Shown: positions 4,115-38,894 of the stretch, piece after piece
How positions within the stretch are numbered: position 1 is the first letter of the stretch
How the letters are laid out: each line of letters opens with the position of its first letter
Assembly: GCA_002352465.1 (NCBI GenBank)
Contig: DEIN01000003.1
Span: forward strand, 24,933-88,932
Direction of reading: 5' to 3'
Source: Patescibacteria group bacterium UBA2773
Lineage (GTDB): Bacteria > Patescibacteriota > Minisyncoccia > Moranbacterales > DUUL01
Length of the DNA stretch: 64,000 nt
Notes under the pieces: generated by a model
Told to the model about the DNA's origin: nothing
What the model saw: only the letters and a program-made list of their open reading frames with translations
Databases searched by the model: none
Program-made: the position numbers and the translations under genes

Positions 4115-4654
4115 TTACATTTTAGAAATTTCGTTTTTTAGAATTTCTTTTATATTTTTACCTAGATTCTTAACAAAATTTCTATCTTTAATAAAATTTT
4201 CCAAATCCAAAATTATACTTCGACTATCAATTTTAGTTATGATTTTCAAAAGCTTTGTTTCCAGTTCTTTTGAACTATCAACCTCTTCAATACAATTCAA
4301 GTTTGGAACAATTCCTTTCTGAAGATACCACATTAAATCAAAATAGTCCCTCCCCTTAACGCTAATTATTGTTTCACCTGATTTGCTATTTTTCTCCCAT
4401 TTTCGATACAAAACCGCTCTAATTTTGGTAGCCATCAAAGTTGATAAATCAAACATCTTTACTAGGACTAACTGATTGTGTCTAAAAGTTGGTTTTATTT
4501 CGGTTTTAAATTTTTTGCAAAAATCAAATTCCTTGAAAATCTCCACTTTCAAATTCAAGTAATTCGATTGACTTGGGTTGGAAAGTCCAAGTTCTTTCAA
4601 AATAGGAAATTTTAAATATATTCTAAATTTTTGAATTTTCTTACTAATAGTCAA
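4115..4654 (-). CDS. AbiEii/AbiGii (DUF1814) nucleotidyltransferase toxin-like protein, C-terminal part only (TTG start)
   Basis: KGRDYFDLMWYL motif and ATKIRAVLYR segment typical of the AbiEii C-terminal region; the N-terminal GGTAL nucleotidyltransferase motif is not seen, so the gene is probably truncated. Confidence 0.4.
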   Translation of the reverse strand: MTISKKIQKFRIYLKFPILKELGLSNPSQSNYLNLKVEIFKEFDFCKKFKTEIKPTFRHNQLVLVKMFDLSTLMATKIRAVLYRKWEKNSKSGETIISVKGRDYFDLMWYLQKGIVPNLNCIEEVDSSKELETKLLKIITKIDSRSIILDLENFIKDRNFVKNLGKNIKEILKNEISKM

Positions 4655-8000: not shown

Positions 8001-8028
8001 GAAAAAAGAAAGACTGATTTAAATCAGT
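8001..8028 (-). terminator. rho-independent terminator-like hairpin downstream of the surface-protein gene
   Basis: perfect palindrome ACTGATTTAAATCAGT (8013-8028) followed on the minus strand by a T-rich run. Confidence 0.4.
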
Positions 8029-8082: not shown

Positions 8083-8298
8083 TTAAACTTTTTTCTTCTT
8101 TCTCTTAACTGTCCAAGTCAAAATTAACAAAAATATTCCGATCAAAACAGTCAAGGCAATTGTTCGGGTTTGAATGTTTTTAGTTTGTTCCCCCGCTACT
8201 TTAACTAGCTTGTTTTCGGCCTTTCCATTCTGCGCCTCTTTTTGGGCTATCTTTTTCTCAACAATCGATTCTTTCTTCTCTGCTTGTTTTTGAGTCAA
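8083..8298 (-). CDS. C-terminal segment of the frameshifted surface protein: K-rich linker, TM anchor, basic tail
   Basis: TTG-initiated 71-aa ORF with no internal Met; reachable from the 226-aa ORF by +1 nt in the A8 tract at 8301-8308. Confidence 0.4.
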   Translation of the reverse strand: MTQKQAEKKESIVEKKIAQKEAQNGKAENKLVKVAGEQTKNIQTRTIALTVLIGIFLLILTWTVKRKKKKV

Positions 8299-8975
8299 GG
8301 CTTTTTTTTCTTAATATTTTTAACATATCCCAACGTCTGTTCTTGCTCTTTTTTCTTTTTCTTATCTTTCTTCTTTTCGTCATCATCAGTTTCATCTTCA
8401 ACTTCATCCTCGGTTGCAATAATCACGTCTTCCTCGATTTCATCCTCCTCGTCAGCCACAACAATCTCGACATCTTCTTCTACTTCATCTTCCTCTCTCT
8501 TAATAATATTAATTTCACTATTTTCAAAAACAATATCGTAATTAATTTCCTCCTCGCTAATTATTTCTCCGTTAAACTCTGTAAAAATATTTTCATCTTC
8601 ATCTATTTTGTAAACAGAACCATCATAAACACCTTCTCCATTCCCTGTTATTTTTAAAAAATATTCCCCTTCTGGATTCTGAATTTCAACGATTTTATAT
8701 CCATCATCTTTTCCGTCTGAATAAAAATAAGCACCTTCAATCTGACTTTGATTTTTATTTATAAAATTGCCTTCTGAATTTTCTATTTCAACGTCAATCG
8801 GACAAGCAAACGCAAATATTAATTTATTTTTTGTTGCTAAGGTTAAAACTTCTTCTGGAATATCAATCCCTAAAAACTGATGAGTTTTTTTCAACCGCCT
8901 TAGCTGGTAAATCGATATGACTAACATCATCGATTGTAATAGTATTAAACATCGGCACATCTCCGCTACTTTCAT
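8295..8975 (-). CDS. middle segment of the frameshifted surface protein (D/E-rich acidic linker)
   Basis: the first about 37 codons are out-of-frame overlap with the 570-aa ORF; real continuation starts near THQFLGIDIPEEVL after the A7 tract at 8885-8891. Confidence 0.4.
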   Translation of the reverse strand: MKVAEMCRCLILLQSMMLVISIYQLRRLKKTHQFLGIDIPEEVLTLATKNKLIFAFACPIDVEIENSEGNFINKNQSQIEGAYFYSDGKDDGYKIVEIQNPEGEYFLKITGNGEGVYDGSVYKIDEDENIFTEFNGEIISEEEINYDIVFENSEINIIKREEDEVEEDVEIVVADEEDEIEEDVIIATEDEVEDETDDDEKKKDKKKKKEQEQTLGYVKNIKKKKP

Positions 8976-10575
8976 TCAAAACCGTTCCGTCACCTGAAAA
9001 GACTTCCTTTTCTAGCGGATAAGGATTAGGAAAACCATCCTTCCAAAGCTTGTCTTTATTATCACCTGAATATTTATCTACTTTTATAACTTTAGATGTG
9101 CCATTAGAAGAACCCTGAATCATTAATAAATTTTTCTCAAAATCAAAATTATTTTTATTCATACCTATTCCACCCATTAATCCCATTAGATATTCATTTT
9201 GTTCTTCCATTTCCCAGAAATTAACCATTTTTTCATCGTCATTTTTTTGAATATAATTGTATAAAGGCAATAGTTGCTTGACTGCTGGAACATATTTATG
9301 AACTAAATCATAAAAATCTAAGCCCTCGTTCTCTTCTTTCAAAGATAAAAAAGAAAGATAATAATCCATTATAGACCAATCTTCAGGAATTAATCCTCCT
9401 TCCCAAATTGGATATGCCTTGCTTGCCCCCAACAATGGGCTACCTTGCAAAACCACTTTATCAATATTATTTTCATAAACATCCCCCGTTAAATAATCCA
9501 AAGTCACCAAACCACCCATTGAATGAGCAATAATATCATATTTTTGATCAAAAGAAATTTCTTCGATTTTTTTCAAAACAGGTTTCAAAAATTTTTCTAC
9601 ATTAGCATGGTTATCCTTGCGCCAATCATAATAGACCACGAAATAGTCTCTATTTTTTTGATAACCTTGCTCCTCCAATGAATTAATCCAACTGTCATAA
9701 CCATGGAAAGTAGGTGAAAAATTCCAAGAATCAAAAGCAATTTCATTCTCCATCATAACCTCCCAATTCCAGCTGCCTCCAATTCCAGGAATTAAAACGA
9801 TTGGTTTGAATTCAGAACCACATTGTTGAGGTAAATTAATATCAAAATTACCTTCAATTTTTTCACCTCTACCTTGAGGATTATTTTCATAAGTCGGACC
9901 AGAAGGACGCATCCAACAATTGCTTTTCAAAATTGCTGGATTTTCAACCTCCGAATAAACAGCCAATTCTTTATTGCGATAAAAAGAATTGTTAGTCAAT
10001 AAAGCATTCTGTGCTTGAAGAATATTTATAGCTCGATAATTTTCTTTAAAAATGGTATTATTAATAGCTAATTCTTCAGAAGAAGCTATATTCAAAGCTC
10101 CTTCCGGCTGACAATTATCATTAGCTAAAACTTTTTTTAAAAAACTTTTTTCATAATTGTTGGCATAACAATTAAAAAAACCGCCTTTTGCAAAAACGGC
10201 ATTGTTGATATAGGTTCGAGTGGCGTTATTAACAGAAATTGAAAAATTTCCAGTTTCCATTATCCCTTCAAAAATCACTGGATGCCCCATCTCTCCTAAA
10301 ACCTCAAAATCCCCTTCAATAATTAGTCTAGCATTATTTTTAAACAATATTCTAACTCCTTTTTCGACTTTCAAACCCTGCTTAAAATAATGATCTTGAT
10401 GATCGATTCTGATTGGAGCGTTATTCAAACTCCAAACGACTGGGTCTTCATGCACCACTAAAATTTCAGAATTAGCTGATAATTTATTTAAAAAATAATG
10501 ATTGCAAAAAGGAACTAAAGAAATAAAAAGTAGAATTATTAAAAAATATCTAGTTTTAATTATTTTATTTTTCAT
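8863..10575 (-). CDS. secreted surface protein N-terminal part: signal peptide, parallel beta-helix repeats, alpha/beta-hydrolase (lipase-like) domain
   Basis: N-terminal signal peptide MKNKIIKTRYFLIILLFISLVPF; NN-rich beta-helix-like repeats; GxSxG nucleophile elbow DIIAHSMGGLV and PIVLIPGIGGSWNW. Confidence 0.7.
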   Translation of the reverse strand: MKNKIIKTRYFLIILLFISLVPFCNHYFLNKLSANSEILVVHEDPVVWSLNNAPIRIDHQDHYFKQGLKVEKGVRILFKNNARLIIEGDFEVLGEMGHPVIFEGIMETGNFSISVNNATRTYINNAVFAKGGFFNCYANNYEKSFLKKVLANDNCQPEGALNIASSEELAINNTIFKENYRAINILQAQNALLTNNSFYRNKELAVYSEVENPAILKSNCWMRPSGPTYENNPQGRGEKIEGNFDINLPQQCGSEFKPIVLIPGIGGSWNWEVMMENEIAFDSWNFSPTFHGYDSWINSLEEQGYQKNRDYFVVYYDWRKDNHANVEKFLKPVLKKIEEISFDQKYDIIAHSMGGLVTLDYLTGDVYENNIDKVVLQGSPLLGASKAYPIWEGGLIPEDWSIMDYYLSFLSLKEENEGLDFYDLVHKYVPAVKQLLPLYNYIQKNDDEKMVNFWEMEEQNEYLMGLMGGIGMNKNNFDFEKNLLMIQGSSNGTSKVIKVDKYSGDNKDKLWKDGFPNPYPLEKEVFSGDGTVLNESSGDVPMFNTITIDDVSHIDLPAKAVEKNSSVFRD

Positions 10576-10590
10576 AATTAAAAAAATTAA

Positions 10591-10998
10591 TTAAAAAATT
10601 GGTTTTAAAAAAATACTATGTAAAATTAAGTAAATATACAAATAAAATCCAATTAATCCAATTAAATAAGTTAAAAAAATATTTTTTATTATCCTTTTAT
10701 TTTTTGGGAAAATATTTTTATAAAATAAGGGTAATAAAATTAAAAATAGAAAAGAAAAAAGAATACTAGAAAAAAACATGTTGGAAATAAAAAAATTGGA
10801 TTTAACCATATTTTCTGCATAAAAAATTATACAACCTAACAAGAAAATCTCCAGAACACTCACCCCGATCATCAACCAATAATTTGGTTTATATTTTTTA
10901 ATCAAAAAATAGGTCGGAACTAAGCAAACTAAATAAATTAGTCCAACTACGAACATTGGCAAAACCCAAGTTTCTAAATAGAAGAATAGACTACTCAT
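10591..10998 (-). CDS. hypothetical small integral membrane protein (4 TM)
   Basis: 135 aa, hydrophobic helices. Confidence 0.5.
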   Translation of the reverse strand: MSSLFFYLETWVLPMFVVGLIYLVCLVPTYFLIKKYKPNYWLMIGVSVLEIFLLGCIIFYAENMVKSNFFISNMFFSSILFSFLFLILLPLFYKNIFPKNKRIIKNIFLTYLIGLIGFYLYIYLILHSIFLKPIF

Positions 10999-12369: not shown

Positions 12370-13554
12370 GTGATTAGAAGAAATATTCTAAAAAATAAAA
12401 ATTCCGTAAAACAAAATATGAAATTAAAAAAGGAGTATTATTGCGTCATTGATGAAAATAATAAACCTGACTATCGACGATTGTTTGAATGCAAAAACGA
12501 TGCTCAAAAATGGATTAGAAAGATAAAAAATTCCACTCAAGGTGAAACGGCTTTATTCGGTAAAAATAAAAAAGATTATTTTGTGGATGGCTTAAAAAAA
12601 GATTTTGTGAATCCTTACAAGAAACTTCACCTCAAAAAAGGTTGTTGGTCAGCCCTGAAGGTCAAAAAATTGGTTATGATGGACAATTTTCAACCCGAAA
12701 AATTCTTTGAAAAAATTGTTCCAGATCGAAATAATAAGTTAATTTTCGATAAACAGGAAGCCTCTGAAATTGAATTTGCCATCAAAAAACCCGAGATAAA
12801 ATCCCCTCAAATTCTTAAAGATTTTCTTAATATTAAAAATTTTGACTGGGAAAGCACCTTTATTAGAAACAAATCTTTTGCCGTAGCAACTTCATTTTTG
12901 TTTTTGTTTACTATGAGTTTTTCATTTTTTATTCAAAAAGATGTTAACGAAAAAATAGTCTATGAATTATCAAAAGCTCAAAATGAAACCATCCAACAAA
13001 CCACTCAGACCCAAACTAAAGTTTTAGGTAAAATCACTGAACACGAATCAGAAGAGTCAGAAGAAGCACTTGATCTTTTTGTGATGGATACTCTGAAACA
13101 ATTCGAAAAAGTTAAACAGGAAGATTTGGAAGTAGAAATCAATAAAATTGTTGAAGGTAGCCCAATGAAGAAAATGACTCCTTTACTTGCTCAATTGGAC
13201 AACCGAGTAGCCGCTTTTATGGTGGCGATTGCCAAGAAAGAAAGTAACCTCGGTCGAAGAGTTCCTGTATTACACGGTGAAGATTGCTTTAACTATTGGG
13301 GCTACCGAGGAATTCGAGAAAAAATGGGAAGCGGTGGACATACTTGTTTCGACAGTCCTAAAGATGCCGTTGAAACGGTTTCCAAACGAATTAGCGAATT
13401 AGTCAAAGCCGATATTGATACTCCCCAAGAAATGGTAATTTGGAAATGTGGTTCTAGTTGCGCTGGACATTCTGACTACAGCGTTGAAAAATGGATTAGT
13501 GACGTTGAAATGTATTACGAAAAATTTGATAATATTGATAATTCCAATGCCTAG
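12370..13554 (+). CDS. membrane-anchored protein with C-terminal GH73-like (N-acetylglucosaminidase/FlgJ-like) peptidoglycan-hydrolase-like domain
   Basis: only plus-strand gene; cytoplasmic K-rich N-domain, one TM (SFAVATSFLFLFTMSFSFFI), then AIAKKESNLG...NYWGYRG...FDSPKDAVETVSKRI resembling GH73 motifs ESGWG / NNLFGIK / F.AY.S; extra Cys pairs. Confidence 0.55.
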   Translation: MIRRNILKNKNSVKQNMKLKKEYYCVIDENNKPDYRRLFECKNDAQKWIRKIKNSTQGETALFGKNKKDYFVDGLKKDFVNPYKKLHLKKGCWSALKVKKLVMMDNFQPEKFFEKIVPDRNNKLIFDKQEASEIEFAIKKPEIKSPQILKDFLNIKNFDWESTFIRNKSFAVATSFLFLFTMSFSFFIQKDVNEKIVYELSKAQNETIQQTTQTQTKVLGKITEHESEESEEALDLFVMDTLKQFEKVKQEDLEVEINKIVEGSPMKKMTPLLAQLDNRVAAFMVAIAKKESNLGRRVPVLHGEDCFNYWGYRGIREKMGSGGHTCFDSPKDAVETVSKRISELVKADIDTPQEMVIWKCGSSCAGHSDYSVEKWISDVEMYYEKFDNIDNSNA

Positions 13555-14573: not shown

Positions 14574-14686
14574 GCTTTATGAACTTTGTAAACTTTCAAC
14601 TTTATTTACCCTGTTAAATAATTTTAGTAAAACTAAAATTAGACCGAATCTATTTAACAAAGTAAACTTTCTGACTAAAATATATT
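14574..14686. repeat. about 110-bp direct repeat, copy 1 (degraded palindrome), 3' of rseP
   Basis: near-identical to 15987..16093; contains AACTTT triplet and CCCTGTTAAATA...TATTTAACAaaG imperfect inverted repeat. Confidence 0.7.
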
Positions 14687-15880
14687 TTTTATTTTATCAA
14701 TTACTTCAAAATTAGTAAAATCTTTAATCGTAACGAACACCATTAATCCAATCAACAAAAAGAAACCGATCGCATTAGCCATTCCTTCAATTTTTTGATT
14801 TAAAGGCGAACCTTTAATTTTTTCAATTAACAAAAAGAAAATTCGCCCACCATCCAAAGCTGGAAATGGCAACAAATTTATCACGCCCAAATTGACTGAA
14901 AGCAAAGCAACAAATTGCAAGACATAAGCCAATCCTAATTGTGTCATTTTCCCAGTCATAATAGCAATTCCCACTGGACCAGCCACCTCCGCTGAAATTT
15001 TTTCAACCGTGAAAATTTTAACAATCATATCAATCAAAAACATTATAATTGTGGTTATCATCGAAAAAGTGGCCTTGACCGCCAACCAAGTTGCTTCAAA
15101 AAATCCGTATTTAACAAAACTAGTTCGAACTAGTTGGACACCCAATAAACCTTGGCCTTCAGGGGCAACTTCCCGAATAGTCGTTTTTAGAGTCGTTATC
15201 TCCCGCTCCTCTAAAGTCGAACCTTTGACCACTCCAATCAAAACTTCTCGTCCTTTGTTTTCTTTAATTACTTCTTGAAAACCAACAATAGTATTAATTC
15301 TAATCGTTTTTTCGGAAGTCATCACTGAAACAATTTCGTCCCCCATTTCCAATCCCATTTCCTGAGCTGGAGTTCCCATCGACACTTGAGCAATTTGAAC
15401 CTTAGTATTCGCCTTTTTATTTTCATCAGAGATTGATTCTGGCAACCCTATTTGGAAAGCCACTGAAAACAAAATAATCGCCAAAATAAAGTTCATAGCT
15501 ACTCCGGCAAAAAGAATCTTAAACCTGACCCAAATAGATTGATTGGCAAAACTTCTTTTATCTTTTTTCCCATTTTCGTCTTCCCCGTCCTCTCCTTTAA
15601 TTTTAACAAAGCCTCCTAATGGAATCAGATTTAAAGAATAAATAGTTTCATCTTGATTTTTTTCAATTTCTTCTATCGATTTGTTGCCGATTATCCATTG
15701 TCTTTTACCTTGTTTATCTTTATACGTTCCAACCAAGCGAGGAGGAAAACCAAACCCAAACTCATCCGACGGTACCCCATTTCGCTTCGCCACTAAAAAA
15801 TGACCCAATTCATGAACTAGTACCAACAAACCAAGAATTAACATAAAAACTATAAAAGTTGTCATAAAAAAAATATTCAA
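14675..15880 (-). CDS. rseP: RIP metalloprotease RseP (site-2 protease, M50 family) with PDZ domain
   Basis: HELGHFLVA zinc motif, PDZ region, PALDGGR motif. Confidence 0.85.
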   Translation of the reverse strand: MNIFFMTTFIVFMLILGLLVLVHELGHFLVAKRNGVPSDEFGFGFPPRLVGTYKDKQGKRQWIIGNKSIEEIEKNQDETIYSLNLIPLGGFVKIKGEDGEDENGKKDKRSFANQSIWVRFKILFAGVAMNFILAIILFSVAFQIGLPESISDENKKANTKVQIAQVSMGTPAQEMGLEMGDEIVSVMTSEKTIRINTIVGFQEVIKENKGREVLIGVVKGSTLEEREITTLKTTIREVAPEGQGLLGVQLVRTSFVKYGFFEATWLAVKATFSMITTIIMFLIDMIVKIFTVEKISAEVAGPVGIAIMTGKMTQLGLAYVLQFVALLSVNLGVINLLPFPALDGGRIFFLLIEKIKGSPLNQKIEGMANAIGFFLLIGLMVFVTIKDFTNFEVIDKIKNIF

Positions 15881-15986: not shown

Positions 15987-16093
15987 TTTATAAACTTTAT
16001 AAACTTTCAACTTTATTTACCCTGTTAAATAATTTTAGTAAAACTAAAATTAGACCGAATCTATTTAACAGGGTGAACTTTCTGACTCATTTA
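15987..16093. repeat. about 110-bp direct repeat, copy 2 (perfect 12-bp inverted repeat CCCTGTTAAATA / TATTTAACAGGG 30 nt apart), between frr and rseP
   Basis: see copy 1; ends exactly at the frr stop codon. Confidence 0.7.
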
Positions 16094-16648
16094 TATTTGC
16101 ATCAAATCCTGCTTCTTTTTTGCCTCAATCTCATCAAGTTTTTTATTATATTCATCAACTATTTTTTGCAAATCATCCTTAGCTTTAAATTTTTCATCCT
16201 CAGAAATTTCTCCTTCTCGTTCATTTTTTTGAATTCCGCTCCAAAAATCTTCCCGATGCCTTCTCATTCTAATTTTCATTTCTTCCGTTTTTTTTCCAAG
16301 CTGTTTTACTAAATCCAACCGTCGCTCCTCAGTCATCAGAGGAATAACAATTCGAATTACGTTTCCATCGTCACTAGGATTTAAGCCTAAATCCGACTTA
16401 CTAATCGCTTTTTGAATTTCTTTAATTTGGACCTTATTCCAAGGCGAAATCTCGATAGTTTTGGCATCCAGAACACTAACATTGGCCATATGGACCAAAG
16501 GAGTTCGAGTTCCAAAATATTCAACCTGAATGCCTTCAACCAGCTCAGTACTAGCTCGTCCAGTTTTCATTTTCTTTAAATCATTTTGATATTGCTTAAC
16601 TACTTCTTCAAAATTAAGCTTTAGATTATCAATATTTTCAATATTCAT
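16091..16648 (-). CDS. frr: ribosome recycling factor
   Basis: 185 aa, collinear with RRF (VEYFGTRTPL..., IRIVIPLMTEERR). Confidence 0.9.
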   Translation of the reverse strand: MNIENIDNLKLNFEEVVKQYQNDLKKMKTGRASTELVEGIQVEYFGTRTPLVHMANVSVLDAKTIEISPWNKVQIKEIQKAISKSDLGLNPSDDGNVIRIVIPLMTEERRLDLVKQLGKKTEEMKIRMRRHREDFWSGIQKNEREGEISEDEKFKAKDDLQKIVDEYNKKLDEIEAKKKQDLMQI

Positions 16649-22061: not shown

Positions 22062-22676
22062 TTATTTAGTTGCTTCTTTCTTAGCCTTAACTGCTTTTTT
22101 AGAAGTTACTTTCTTAACCGTTTTTTTAACTTTAGGCTTATCGGAAATTTTTGGTTCCACTTTTTTAACAATCGCTTTTTTAAATTTAACGGCTATAGGT
22201 TTATTAACAATTTGCTTGCCTTCTAATTGATCCAAAGCTTTTAAAGTCGCCTTAGCAATATTTATTTTATTAGAAGAACCCAAAGATTTAGCGGTAATAT
22301 TTTTAACTCCAGCCAATTCAAAAATTAATCGCATCGCCCCACCAGCCACAATGCCCTTACCTTCTTTGGCCGGTTTAATCATCACTTGAGCTCCGCAAAA
22401 TCTTTCATCGACTCGATAAGAGATAGTAGAATCCAAACGTTTTACAATAATCATACTTTTTTTGGCGGCTTCCACTGATTTGTTAATCGCTCCAGCTACA
22501 TCAGTACCCTGAGCCACACCCAAACCAACCTTGCCTTTTCGATTTCCAATAATCATTGTCGCTCGAAAAGAAAATCTTCGACCACCTTTAACTACTCGAA
22601 CAACCCTAGCTAAATCCAAAAGTTTTTGATCAAATTCTGGTTTCTTATTCCTGTTGTTAAATCTCTTATTTGCCAT
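22062..22676 (-). CDS. rpsE: 30S ribosomal protein S5 (K-rich C-terminal extension)
   Basis: VVKGGRRFSFRATMIIGNRKGKVGLGVAQG motif; only a 15-bp gap to rplO, so no rpmD (L30). Confidence 0.9.
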   Translation of the reverse strand: MANKRFNNRNKKPEFDQKLLDLARVVRVVKGGRRFSFRATMIIGNRKGKVGLGVAQGTDVAGAINKSVEAAKKSMIIVKRLDSTISYRVDERFCGAQVMIKPAKEGKGIVAGGAMRLIFELAGVKNITAKSLGSSNKINIAKATLKALDQLEGKQIVNKPIAVKFKKAIVKKVEPKISDKPKVKKTVKKVTSKKAVKAKKEATK

Positions 22677-37826: not shown

Positions 37827-38894
37827 TTAAATTCCTTCTTCTTTAAGTTTTTGAATCAAACTTTTTTGACTCCAAGAAAGCTTTTTAGGAGTTTTAATTT
37901 TAATTTCCACTAAATGATTCCCTTGTCCAAAACCACCAAATTTTTTAATACCCTTGCCTTTTATTCTCAAAAAATCCCCAGCTTCAATTCCAGCCGGAAT
38001 TTTCAATTTTACAAATCCCTCAACTGTTTCAACTTCCATTTTATCTCCCAAAACAGCTTGGGGGAAAGTTATATATAATTTCGAAACTACATCCGATCCT
38101 TTTCTTTTGAAATCAAGATAAGGTTTAATGTGAATCCTAACATAAAGGTCACCAGCCGAACCGCCCAAAACCGAAGCCTCTCCTCCACCCTGAATTTTTA
38201 GAACCTGTTCTTCATCAATTCCAGCTGGAATATTCACTTCCATTTCCTGATAATCCCTAACTACTCCATCGCCTCCACAATCTCGACATTTTTCCTTAGC
38301 AATTTGACCCTTTCCTAAACATTGGTCACAAACTTCAACTTGAGCAAAAGTTCCCAAAAAAGTCTGTCTAGATTTTTTAATTTTACCCGAACCTCCACAC
38401 TTTGGACATTGTTCGGTTTCCTTATTTTTAGCGCCCGTTCCATCACAACTTTTACAAATAATTTTTTTATAAATTTTAACTTTTTTCATCACGCCTTTCG
38501 CCATTTCTTTAAAATCGATATTAACATCGACTACCACATCTGAACCAGCGGTCTTTTTTTGAGCAGTTTGTCCACCACCAAAAAAATCAGAAAAAACATC
38601 TTCAAAGCCACTGTCTTGAAAATCAAAACCTTGGAACCCTCCAGCTCCTTGACCACCACCGCCAAAACCTTGAGCACCAGGTTGTTCATAGCCAGAACCA
38701 AACTGATCATATTGACCACGCTTTTTATTATCAGATAAAGTTTGATAAGCCTCATTAATTTCTTTAAATTTAGCTTCACTTCCTCCTTTTTTATCAGGAT
38801 GATGTTGATGAGCTAATTTTCGATAAGCTTTTTTAATCTCATTTTGCGACGCTTTTTTATCAACGCCTAAAACATTATAATAGTCTTTACTCAT
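37827..38894 (-). CDS. dnaJ: chaperone DnaJ
   Basis: J domain with HPD, G/F-rich region, four CxxCxGxG zinc repeats. Confidence 0.9.

Follow-up and report, generated by a model that had tools for sequence, protein, structure and literature searches.

Are the three successive open reading frames (ORFs) on the minus strand at positions 8083–10575 of the stretch studied here three genes, or one gene broken twice, and if so by what? The stretch, referred to as the window, comprises 64,000 nucleotides (nt) of contig DEIN01000003.1 from Patescibacteria group bacterium UBA2773. A first-pass annotation made from the letters alone had proposed one gene for a secreted surface protein, split by frameshifts in poly-A tracts, and had offered sequencing error, phase variation and transcriptional slippage as causes. 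The ORFs, of 570, 226 and 71 amino acids (aa), are pieces of one gene of ∼830 residues, whose product looks like a secreted, membrane-anchored LCAT-type lipase-like surface protein. We consider it probable that two genuine homopolymer slippage mutations recently truncated or pseudogenised this Patescibacteria surface lipase, leaving a 570-aa secreted catalytic fragment. Such a truncated gene or pseudogene with fixed mutations is the simplest reading of the locus and was missing from the three explanations offered before.

One gene in three frames

A search with the repaired protein as query found 14 close uninterrupted homologues of 729–898 aa with 36–62% identity; together with the repaired window protein they form the 15-sequence alignment used below. 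These homologues are continuous through both junctions, which bears out the proposal of a single gene. The version of the window sequence with A6 at the first break and A9 at the second aligns gap-free over both junctions in the 14 homologues. At junction 1 the A6 repair gives DLP, nine residues and FLG, a pattern present in 15/15 aligned sequences; at junction 2 the A9 repair gives NIKKKKALTQKQ, which aligns gap-free to NQEKKEALTQKQ (P0002) and to NYDKKQALN in the closest relative, L003 (CAZXUS010000038.1). The 3′ end of ORF1 carries seven out-of-frame residues (NSSVFRD) followed by TGA. Residues 1–28 of ORF2 are likewise an out-of-frame overlap with ORF1, as had been said of its Met start, and homology to the relatives restarts at ...KKTHQFLG.

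Both breaks lie within coding-strand poly-A runs, as claimed earlier; the A7 run occupies 8885–8891, as given there, and the A8 run is real, although it spans 8302–8309 and not 8301–8308. The description of the breaks as two −1 frameshifts, each to be mended by one added A, proved right for one site only. At break 1, in silico extension of GAAAAAAAC by one A (A7 to A8) leaves a stop in place at codon 568. The frame is restored either by removing one A (A7 to A6; ...AVEKTHQFLG..., AKAVEKTHQFLGIDIPEE) or by adding two (A7 to A9; ...AVEKKTHQFLG..., the very peptide that had been written down for the single addition). At break 2 one added A (A8 to A9) does mend the frame and gives ...NIKKKKALTQKQAEKKE..., with reading continuing to the transmembrane (TM) segment and a TAA stop, for a protein of 830 aa. 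Break 1 is a +1 shift and break 2 is a −1 shift. The repaired product has the junction peptides AVEKTHQFLGIDIPEEVLTLATK and K-ALTQK, and the out-of-frame ends at the two sites read AVEKNSSVFRD and NIKKKKP. Ancestral tract lengths of A6 and A9 are the most parsimonious, since this version fits the homologues without gaps. The sites lie at 68% (site 1) and 91% (site 2) of the coding sequence. Break 1 falls ten residues past His553, within the last helix of the hydrolase domain (556–568 in the AlphaFold2 model), and break 2 reads A_AAA_AAG in the ORF2 frame, followed by CCT TGA.

Four other arrangements were considered and rejected. ORF1 and ORF3 share a frame, as they would after a compensated double frameshift; between the runs the ORF1 frame is full of stops, and it is the ORF2 frame that is homologous to the relatives. 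ORF1 and ORF2 both end in TGA, as under an alternative code with TGA as a sense codon; readthrough adds 12 and 16 codons of sequence that lacks homology and then ends at TAA or another stop. ORF3 could be taken for an independent small membrane-protein gene with a TTG start overlapping the TGA of ORF2 (TTGA); this TTG encodes the conserved Leu of A-L-T, and the equivalent tail in L003 has no start codon. Nor is there an inserted element between ORF1 and ORF3, as ORF2 encodes the conserved beta-sandwich and linker. A search of metagenome contigs for closer relatives turned up only relatives of ≤30% identity.

Reality of the indels

Single-base length changes in homopolymers are the classic sequencing error, and the remainder of the gene looks fully functional, so that the organism might truly carry A6 and A9 and an intact gene that a consensus error has split. 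The public contigs may furthermore all come from one sample series. However, three different short-read assemblers (that of the source contig, MEGAHIT and Logan) yield the same sequence at both runs: the ENA MEGAHIT contig k141_174329 (124.8 kb) agrees with the window at 100% identity across 20,575 nt, and the Logan contig SRR5324197_20, which crosses both sites unbroken and is the same in two SRA runs, does so across 14,618 nt. Errors at A7 or A8 are infrequent in Illumina consensus sequences, which also counts against a sequencing error. Every public record or assembly found shows the A7/A8 state. A variable-gap DNA pattern designed to pick up other tract lengths matched nothing in genome_contigs or metagenome_contigs, two collections that do not include this genome. 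ORF1 is identical to a recorded protein (P0001) present in NCBI, JGI, ENA and Logan, the split pieces of 570, 199 and 71 aa are recorded in NCBI, JGI, ENA, Logan and GEM, and a collection of ∼15 billion public proteins contains none of the four repaired alleles queried (830, 759, 831 and 760 aa).

The window contains 178 A/T runs of at least 7 nt (139 of 7, 36 of 8 and 3 of 9), approximately one per 360 nt. When all 178 were systematically edited by ±1, long open frames were joined at the two sites described here only; the other 176 runs break no gene, and ∼65 other genes of the window are intact. A third joining match, at 38554, was an out-of-frame artefact inside an intact DnaJ gene. Seven of the 178 runs fall in the lipase gene, four further A7 runs (for example 9242–9248 and 9567–9573) among them, which by our own estimate gives P ∼ (7/178)^2 = 0.0015 for both errors landing there at random, and two errors of opposite sign within one 2.5-kb gene are improbable on this count. 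Given the identity of the assemblies over 14.6–20.5 kb, the restriction of gene breaks to two of the 178 runs and this low probability, an assembler artefact or long-read noise is excluded. The indels look like real DNA lesions, and the sequencing error offered in the first-pass annotation, which could still take the form of a systematic read error, is very unlikely as their source.

Fixed lesions, switching or recoding

According to the reading that we favour, the ancestral gene would have encoded a cell-surface LCAT-type lipase or acyltransferase of ∼830 aa with a signal peptide, a beta-helix-like domain, an alpha/beta hydrolase, a beta-sandwich, an acidic linker and a membrane anchor. Slippage in the homopolymeric A tracts would then have changed A6 to A7 at 8885–8891 and A9 to A8 at 8302–8309. 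Normal decoding of the present gene would give a 570-aa secreted fragment that may still be active. The whole catalytic triad (S352, D529 and H553) would be kept in it, but beta-sandwich, linker and anchor would be missing, together with half of the last hydrolase helix. Either lesion may have come first, with the other as a tolerated follow-up; two hits in one gene are to be expected if selection on the 3′ part was relaxed after the first. Full-length protein would arise only by rare, unprogrammed slippage at both runs on one message.

AT-rich genomes are known to gather pseudogenes caused by indels in long A/T runs (PMC5574713), and the locus resembles the poly(A/T) indel pseudogenes of Buchnera and Blochmannia: a small AT-rich genome in which single-base A-run indels split an otherwise conserved gene. 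A possible partial rescue by polymerase slippage has been discussed for those endosymbionts (PMC5574713, PMC5009743 and PMC3017870). The window runs, however, measure 7 and 8 nt in contrast to the 9–10 or more usually invoked for such rescue, and the host is not an insect endosymbiont but a free-living or episymbiotic member of the Patescibacteria, represented by a metagenome-assembled genome (MAG).

Several observations weigh against two fixed, inactivating lesions. The 800 nt downstream show no further decay: the ORF2 and ORF3 frames contain no extra stop, and the beta-sandwich invariants and the whole anchor are kept. In a Tajima-type relative-rate test (comparison with P0003, four valid outgroups, P0007 left out as an improper outgroup), the ORF2 segment showed no more than a non-significant surplus of changes specific to the window, with 14–16 versus 7–9 (Fisher p ∼0.09–0.12), the counts in ORF1 being 40–44 versus 47–61. 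Either the events are very recent or some selection still acts on the region; measured against these divergences, the lesions appear to be recent. Furthermore, break 2 leaves in frame the classic −1 heptamer of the dnaX type, A_AAA_AAG, followed after one codon by a stop in the 0 frame, and could be leaky. The closest relative uncouples its anchor at nearly the same codon, which hints that anchor loss may be selected or regulated rather than mere decay. The assemblies, finally, may share the same or related read sets, in which case minority alleles could remain hidden.

Whether the runs could serve as switches or recoding signals is best judged from the relatives. In codon alignments of the four nearest ones (L003, L083, L084 and L085) there is an A-run at neither site, with A3 at site 1 (GAA ACA or GAC ACT) and A3–A6 at site 2 (GAT AAA AAG CAG, GAG AAG AAA GAA or GAT AAA AAA CAA). 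As the relatives lack them, the tracts are to be seen as lineage-specific mutational substrates and not as conserved signals. By the run count over 64 kb, lengths of A7 and A8 are ordinary for this genome of 31% GC. No RNA structure downstream of the runs beat shuffled sequences (minimum free energy −10.4 kcal/mol with z = −0.84 at one run, −16.0 kcal/mol with z = −0.56 at the other), and no Shine-Dalgarno (SD)-like element is visible upstream of the shift site. At site 1 the heptamer A_AAA_AAC is in phase, but reading shifted by −1 terminates within 5 codons, the productive frame being +1. Correction there needs +1/−2 decoding or a one-A deletion in the transcript. The A_AAA_AAG at site 2 does not count as independent evidence, because it arises of necessity once AAG AAA AAA AAA G has lost one A; low-level leakiness there is plausible. 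None of this evidence supports a contingency switch or programmed recoding, and the phase variation or transcriptional slippage named in the first-pass annotation found no positive evidence, and only the doubly shifted allele is on record.

If the locus were a contingency gene subject to phase variation, slipped-strand mispairing at the two runs would move the population between a free enzyme of 570 aa, an unanchored form of 759 aa (A6/A8) and an anchored one of 830 aa (A6/A9). That both lesions sit exactly within homopolymers of a protein of the surface or host-interaction type, that the downstream frames are perfectly preserved and that a single gene carries both lesions while ∼65 others are intact would all fit such a switch. 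Yet runs of 7 and 8 are nothing unusual where the 64 kb contain 139 and 36 of these classes and 3 of 9, they are shorter than classic contingency tracts, the homologous sites of the relatives lack a tract, and the positions at 68% and 91% lie away from the 5′ end. The public records, all A7/A8 with no repaired allele among them, and the Logan contig that spans both sites unbroken likewise argue against switching, which we regard as unlikely. Leaky or 'compensatory' recoding would instead restore some longer product through slippage of RNA polymerase, the ribosome or both, with the frameshifts tolerated or maintained and secreted and anchored isoforms as a result. The ribosomal route would involve a +1 shift by tRNA-Lys on A_AAA_A at site 1 and a −1 shift on A_AAA_AAG at site 2. 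When transcription goes wrong in A/T runs, the great majority of errors are insertions, and error rates climb exponentially as the run gets longer (PMC5574713); the one-A insertion needed at site 2 is of this common kind. A homopolymer deletion is a rare transcriptional error (PMC5574713), however, and site 1 needs just that, or else a +1/−2 shift, and the anchored form needs both events on one message.

The closest precedents for recoding show the same mixture of likeness and difference. In Citrobacter rodentium tssM1 (A11) and Yersinia tssM3 (A9) a poly-A run and a stop likewise lie just ahead of a C-terminal domain, and slippage of 15–25%, shown experimentally, rescues the interruption (PMC4256274); by the same means the window gene, in which the downstream frames are also intact, would give short and full-length variants. 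Here, in contrast, an A8 run is combined with an upstream A7 break that would need the opposite correction, and both runs fall short of the A9–A11 of the documented slippage genes (PMC4256274; PMC5009743). Break 2 shares with the −1 shift in dnaX of E. coli the identical heptamer in phase and the 0-frame stop one codon downstream (PMC5009743), but unlike dnaX it has neither an upstream SD-like element nor a downstream stem-loop, and it is unconserved in the homologues; as said, the heptamer itself follows from the loss of one A. Traverse and Ochman found no case in Buchnera in which errors of transcription had brought back a reading frame (PMC5574713). With tracts that the relatives do not conserve, recoding of this kind seems rather improbable.

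The other reading to be weighed starts from L003, the closest relative, which is 58% identical and syntenic. Its copy is a protein of 751 aa ending in ...KKQALN at an in-frame TAA (2840–2842), its single lesion, where the window has CAA, three codons past the position of break 2 (L003 2780–3049 is homologous to window 8083–8330). Behind the TAA the tail is intact and in the same frame (KQENKREE...KIKVAGESIENIQARAIIIAILIGAFLLVLTWTTRRKKTV*), with [KR]VAGE, the TM helix and the basic tail, and no usable start codon for its independent translation was found. On two occasions, then, anchor and enzyme body have been separated, each time by another mutation but at nearly the same position, which may be coincidence or the tolerated loss of a dispensable module. 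This parallel is the only hint that de-anchoring could be selected. Adaptive domain shedding would mean that loss of the anchor, and here of the beta-sandwich as well, turned a cell-bound into a released lipase in two lineages in parallel. The single TAA in L003 with the whole anchor kept behind it, the C-termini as the most variable part of the family and the full catalytic triad in ORF1 are in line with it. There are two cases only, though; the preserved downstream sequence equally fits recent neutral events, and break 1 truncates the last hydrolase helix and may destabilise the enzyme rather than liberate it. We therefore rate shedding as highly improbable. A combined version, in which the A-tract shifts form a maintained leaky arrangement (released catalytic fragment, long unanchored form and little anchored enzyme) and uncoupling of the anchor is recurrent and selected, is in our view quite unlikely. 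Recent truncation or pseudogenisation by two fixed slippage mutations thus stays the reading that we prefer.

Architecture, neighbourhood and meaning of the locus

The features of the locus are collected in Table 1. An AlphaFold2 model was computed on the 15-sequence alignment and reached a mean predicted local distance difference test score (pLDDT) of 71.8. It divides the repaired protein into an all-beta repeat domain (38–250), the hydrolase (255–575), a beta-sandwich (584–692), a linker (696–770), a long helix (753–784) and a terminal helix (802–826). The domain order given in the first-pass annotation agrees with the model for the signal-peptide-like N-terminus, the beta-rich domain, the hydrolase, the acidic linker and the TM helix; the beta-sandwich between hydrolase and linker had been missed.

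Table 1. Positions of the ORFs, breaks, protein domains and selected neighbouring genes (window numbering unless stated otherwise).
Feature	Coordinates	Strand	Description
ORF1 (570 aa)	8863–10575	−	Signal-peptide-like N-terminus, beta-rich domain, complete alpha/beta-hydrolase catalytic domain
ORF2 (226 aa)	8295–8975	−	Frame +1 relative to ORF1
ORF3 (71 aa)	8083–8298	−	Same frame as ORF1
Break 1, A7 run (coding strand)	8885–8891	−	Contains one A more than the intact frame requires; inferred ancestral A6 (GAA AAA ACT = E-K-T)
Break 2, A8 run (coding strand)	8302–8309	−	One A too few; inferred ancestral A9 (AAG AAA AAA AAA GCC)
Signal-peptide-like segment	10471–10575	−	About residues 1–35: basic MKNKIIKTR, hydrophobic YFLIILLFISLVPF, then ...KLSA/NSE; seen in sequence
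Beta-rich N-domain	9826–10464	−	Residues 38–250; short repeated strands in the AlphaFold2 model, pLDDT mostly >90
LCAT/PGAP1-type alpha/beta-hydrolase domain	8887–9813	−	Residues 255–563
Nucleophile elbow AHSMGG	9511–9528	−	Residues 350–355; Ser352 at 9520–9522
Asp529 in GDGTV	8989–8991	−	Invariant column in the 15-sequence alignment
His553	8917–8919	−	Invariant column in the 15-sequence alignment
Beta-sandwich domain	8499–8825	−	Fused residues 584–692, ORF2 frame; AlphaFold2 strands with pLDDT 77–91
Linker, acidic (D/E-rich) then K-rich	8310–8498	−	ORF2 frame; predicted disordered, pLDDT <50 at residues 696–770
C-terminal tail	8083–8301	−	ORF3 frame; K/E-rich helix, [KR]VAGE, TM segment, KRKKKKV, TAA
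Hydrophobic TM segment IALTVLIGIFLLILTWTV	8107–8160	−	Basic tail KRKKKKV directly after
Multi-pass membrane protein gene (135 aa)	10591–10998	−	15 nt upstream of the hydrolase gene; no Pfam match
AbiEii-type copy, window	4115–4654	−	
AbiEii-type copies, L083	2177–2542 and 6457–7158		
AbiEii-type copy, L085	1229–2056		

All homologues have an equivalent N-terminus, which the model shows as a helix (2–20) followed by a low-confidence stretch. The N-domain is probably a right-handed beta-helix. This earlier assignment is in line with the well-modelled beta-rich domain and with the precomputed PF13229 matches of more distant homologues, although the Pfam Beta_helix match itself stays below threshold (20 bits versus a cutoff of 25.9, E=5.5e-4) and is seen in 3/15 family members. 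The hydrolase is recognised with more confidence: Pfam LCAT (PF02450) matches residues 292–394 with E=2.8e-14 (53.6 bits versus a cutoff of 21) and matches 15/15 family members, and PGAP1 matches at threshold. The region is modelled with pLDDT 70–88, and Foldseek searches against the PDB returned the BlEst2 lipase 6wpx (E=1.1e-7), LCAT 4xx1 (1.6e-5) and lipases of Burkholderia and Pseudomonas, including 1ys1. The elbow reads AHSMGG, not GHSMGG as had been written. By analogy with these enzymes S352, D529 and H553, all encoded within ORF1, are assigned as the putative catalytic triad.

Like LCAT/PGAP1-like enzymes and bacterial family-I lipases (PF02450, PF07819; 4xx1, 6wpx, 1ys1), the protein has an alpha/beta-hydrolase core and an elbow of the form A/G-H-S-x-G, and its Asp and His lie in the motifs GDGTV and ...H.DLP. 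However, it is only 12–14% identical to the solved lipases and has an architecture of its own: a beta-helix-like domain precedes the hydrolase, and a beta-sandwich, an acidic linker and a TM anchor follow it. This layout is, as far as seen, restricted to Patescibacteria relatives. The beta-sandwich keeps all invariant residues (A590, P592, I605, D620, D624, G625, I628, Y638, G648 and G669), and the homologues have D/E-rich linkers of variable length. The C-terminal tail aligns to the tails of P0002, P0004, P0005, P0006 and L003, and its terminal helix contains the hydrophobic stretch followed by KRKKKKV, in agreement with the TM anchor and basic tail described earlier. About 10 residues ahead of the TM helix the motif [KR]VAGE (8188–8202, minus strand) is conserved in the window and in the same five sequences; it may be a sorting or processing signal. 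The NCBIfam models, those for sorting signals included, gave no match to the protein. Across the family the C-termini vary widely between TM anchors, Ig-like domains and short tails; a hidden anchor was sought in P0007 and none was found.

A counterpart of 136 aa to the multi-pass membrane protein gene lies 5–40 nt upstream of the hydrolase in every relative examined (L003 136–546, L083 2746–3156, L084 3586–3996 and L085 2207–2617), and the two form a conserved gene pair. Terminator prediction found no intrinsic terminator after ORF3; by eye there is only an AT-rich hairpin, ACTGATTTAAATCAGT, with a T-rich tail at ∼8002–8028. Three different genomes carry genes or fragments of AbiEii-type nucleotidyltransferase toxins at most a few kb away from the hydrolase locus, the window copy matching only positions 117–195 of the 238 of the profile. 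Further away, two 93% identical copies of an AT-rich repeat of ∼110 nt (14576–14687 and 15987–16098) flank an M50 peptidase gene (14675–15880); each copy holds a long inverted repeat (CTGTTAAATA...TATTTAACAG), and there is no Rfam match. The real genes of the window are all on the minus strand but one (12370–13554, plus), and the GC skew is negative in every 2-kb bin of the 64 kb, an unusually uniform strand bias.

The host is an ultrasmall bacterium of Moranbacteria type, and the window uL2 is 72–77% identical to proteins named Patescibacteria, Moraniibacteriota or Moranbacteria. The genes for S5 (22062–22676) and L15 (21582–22046), both on the minus strand, are 15 nt apart with no L30 gene between them, an adjacency that has been described for the Candidate Phyla Radiation. 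The records L003–L007, four GTDB-representative MAGs with the closest homologues, carry the title 'uncultured Bdellovibrionales bacterium'; gene family, synteny and the window uL2 point to Patescibacteria, and these titles look mis-assigned.

The locus matters mostly for annotation: what public records list as separate genes of 570, 199 and 71 aa should be entered as one disrupted gene, and the split is real and should not be 'polished' away. If reads or transcripts were to show heterogeneous tract lengths, this would count among the few documented examples of control by contingency or slippage in Patescibacteria, but so far no observation made here speaks for it. The feature is ordinary in kind with a modest twist, the parallel anchor loss being a mild curiosity. 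The family evolves fast, with 54% identity where ribosomal protein uL2 has 91%. Its intact members would be plausible tools for an ultrasmall, lipid-auxotrophic bacterium acting on lipids of the host or the environment. Truncation in one lineage and de-anchoring in the next suggest that either the anchor or the entire enzyme can be dispensed with or is subject to shifting selection.

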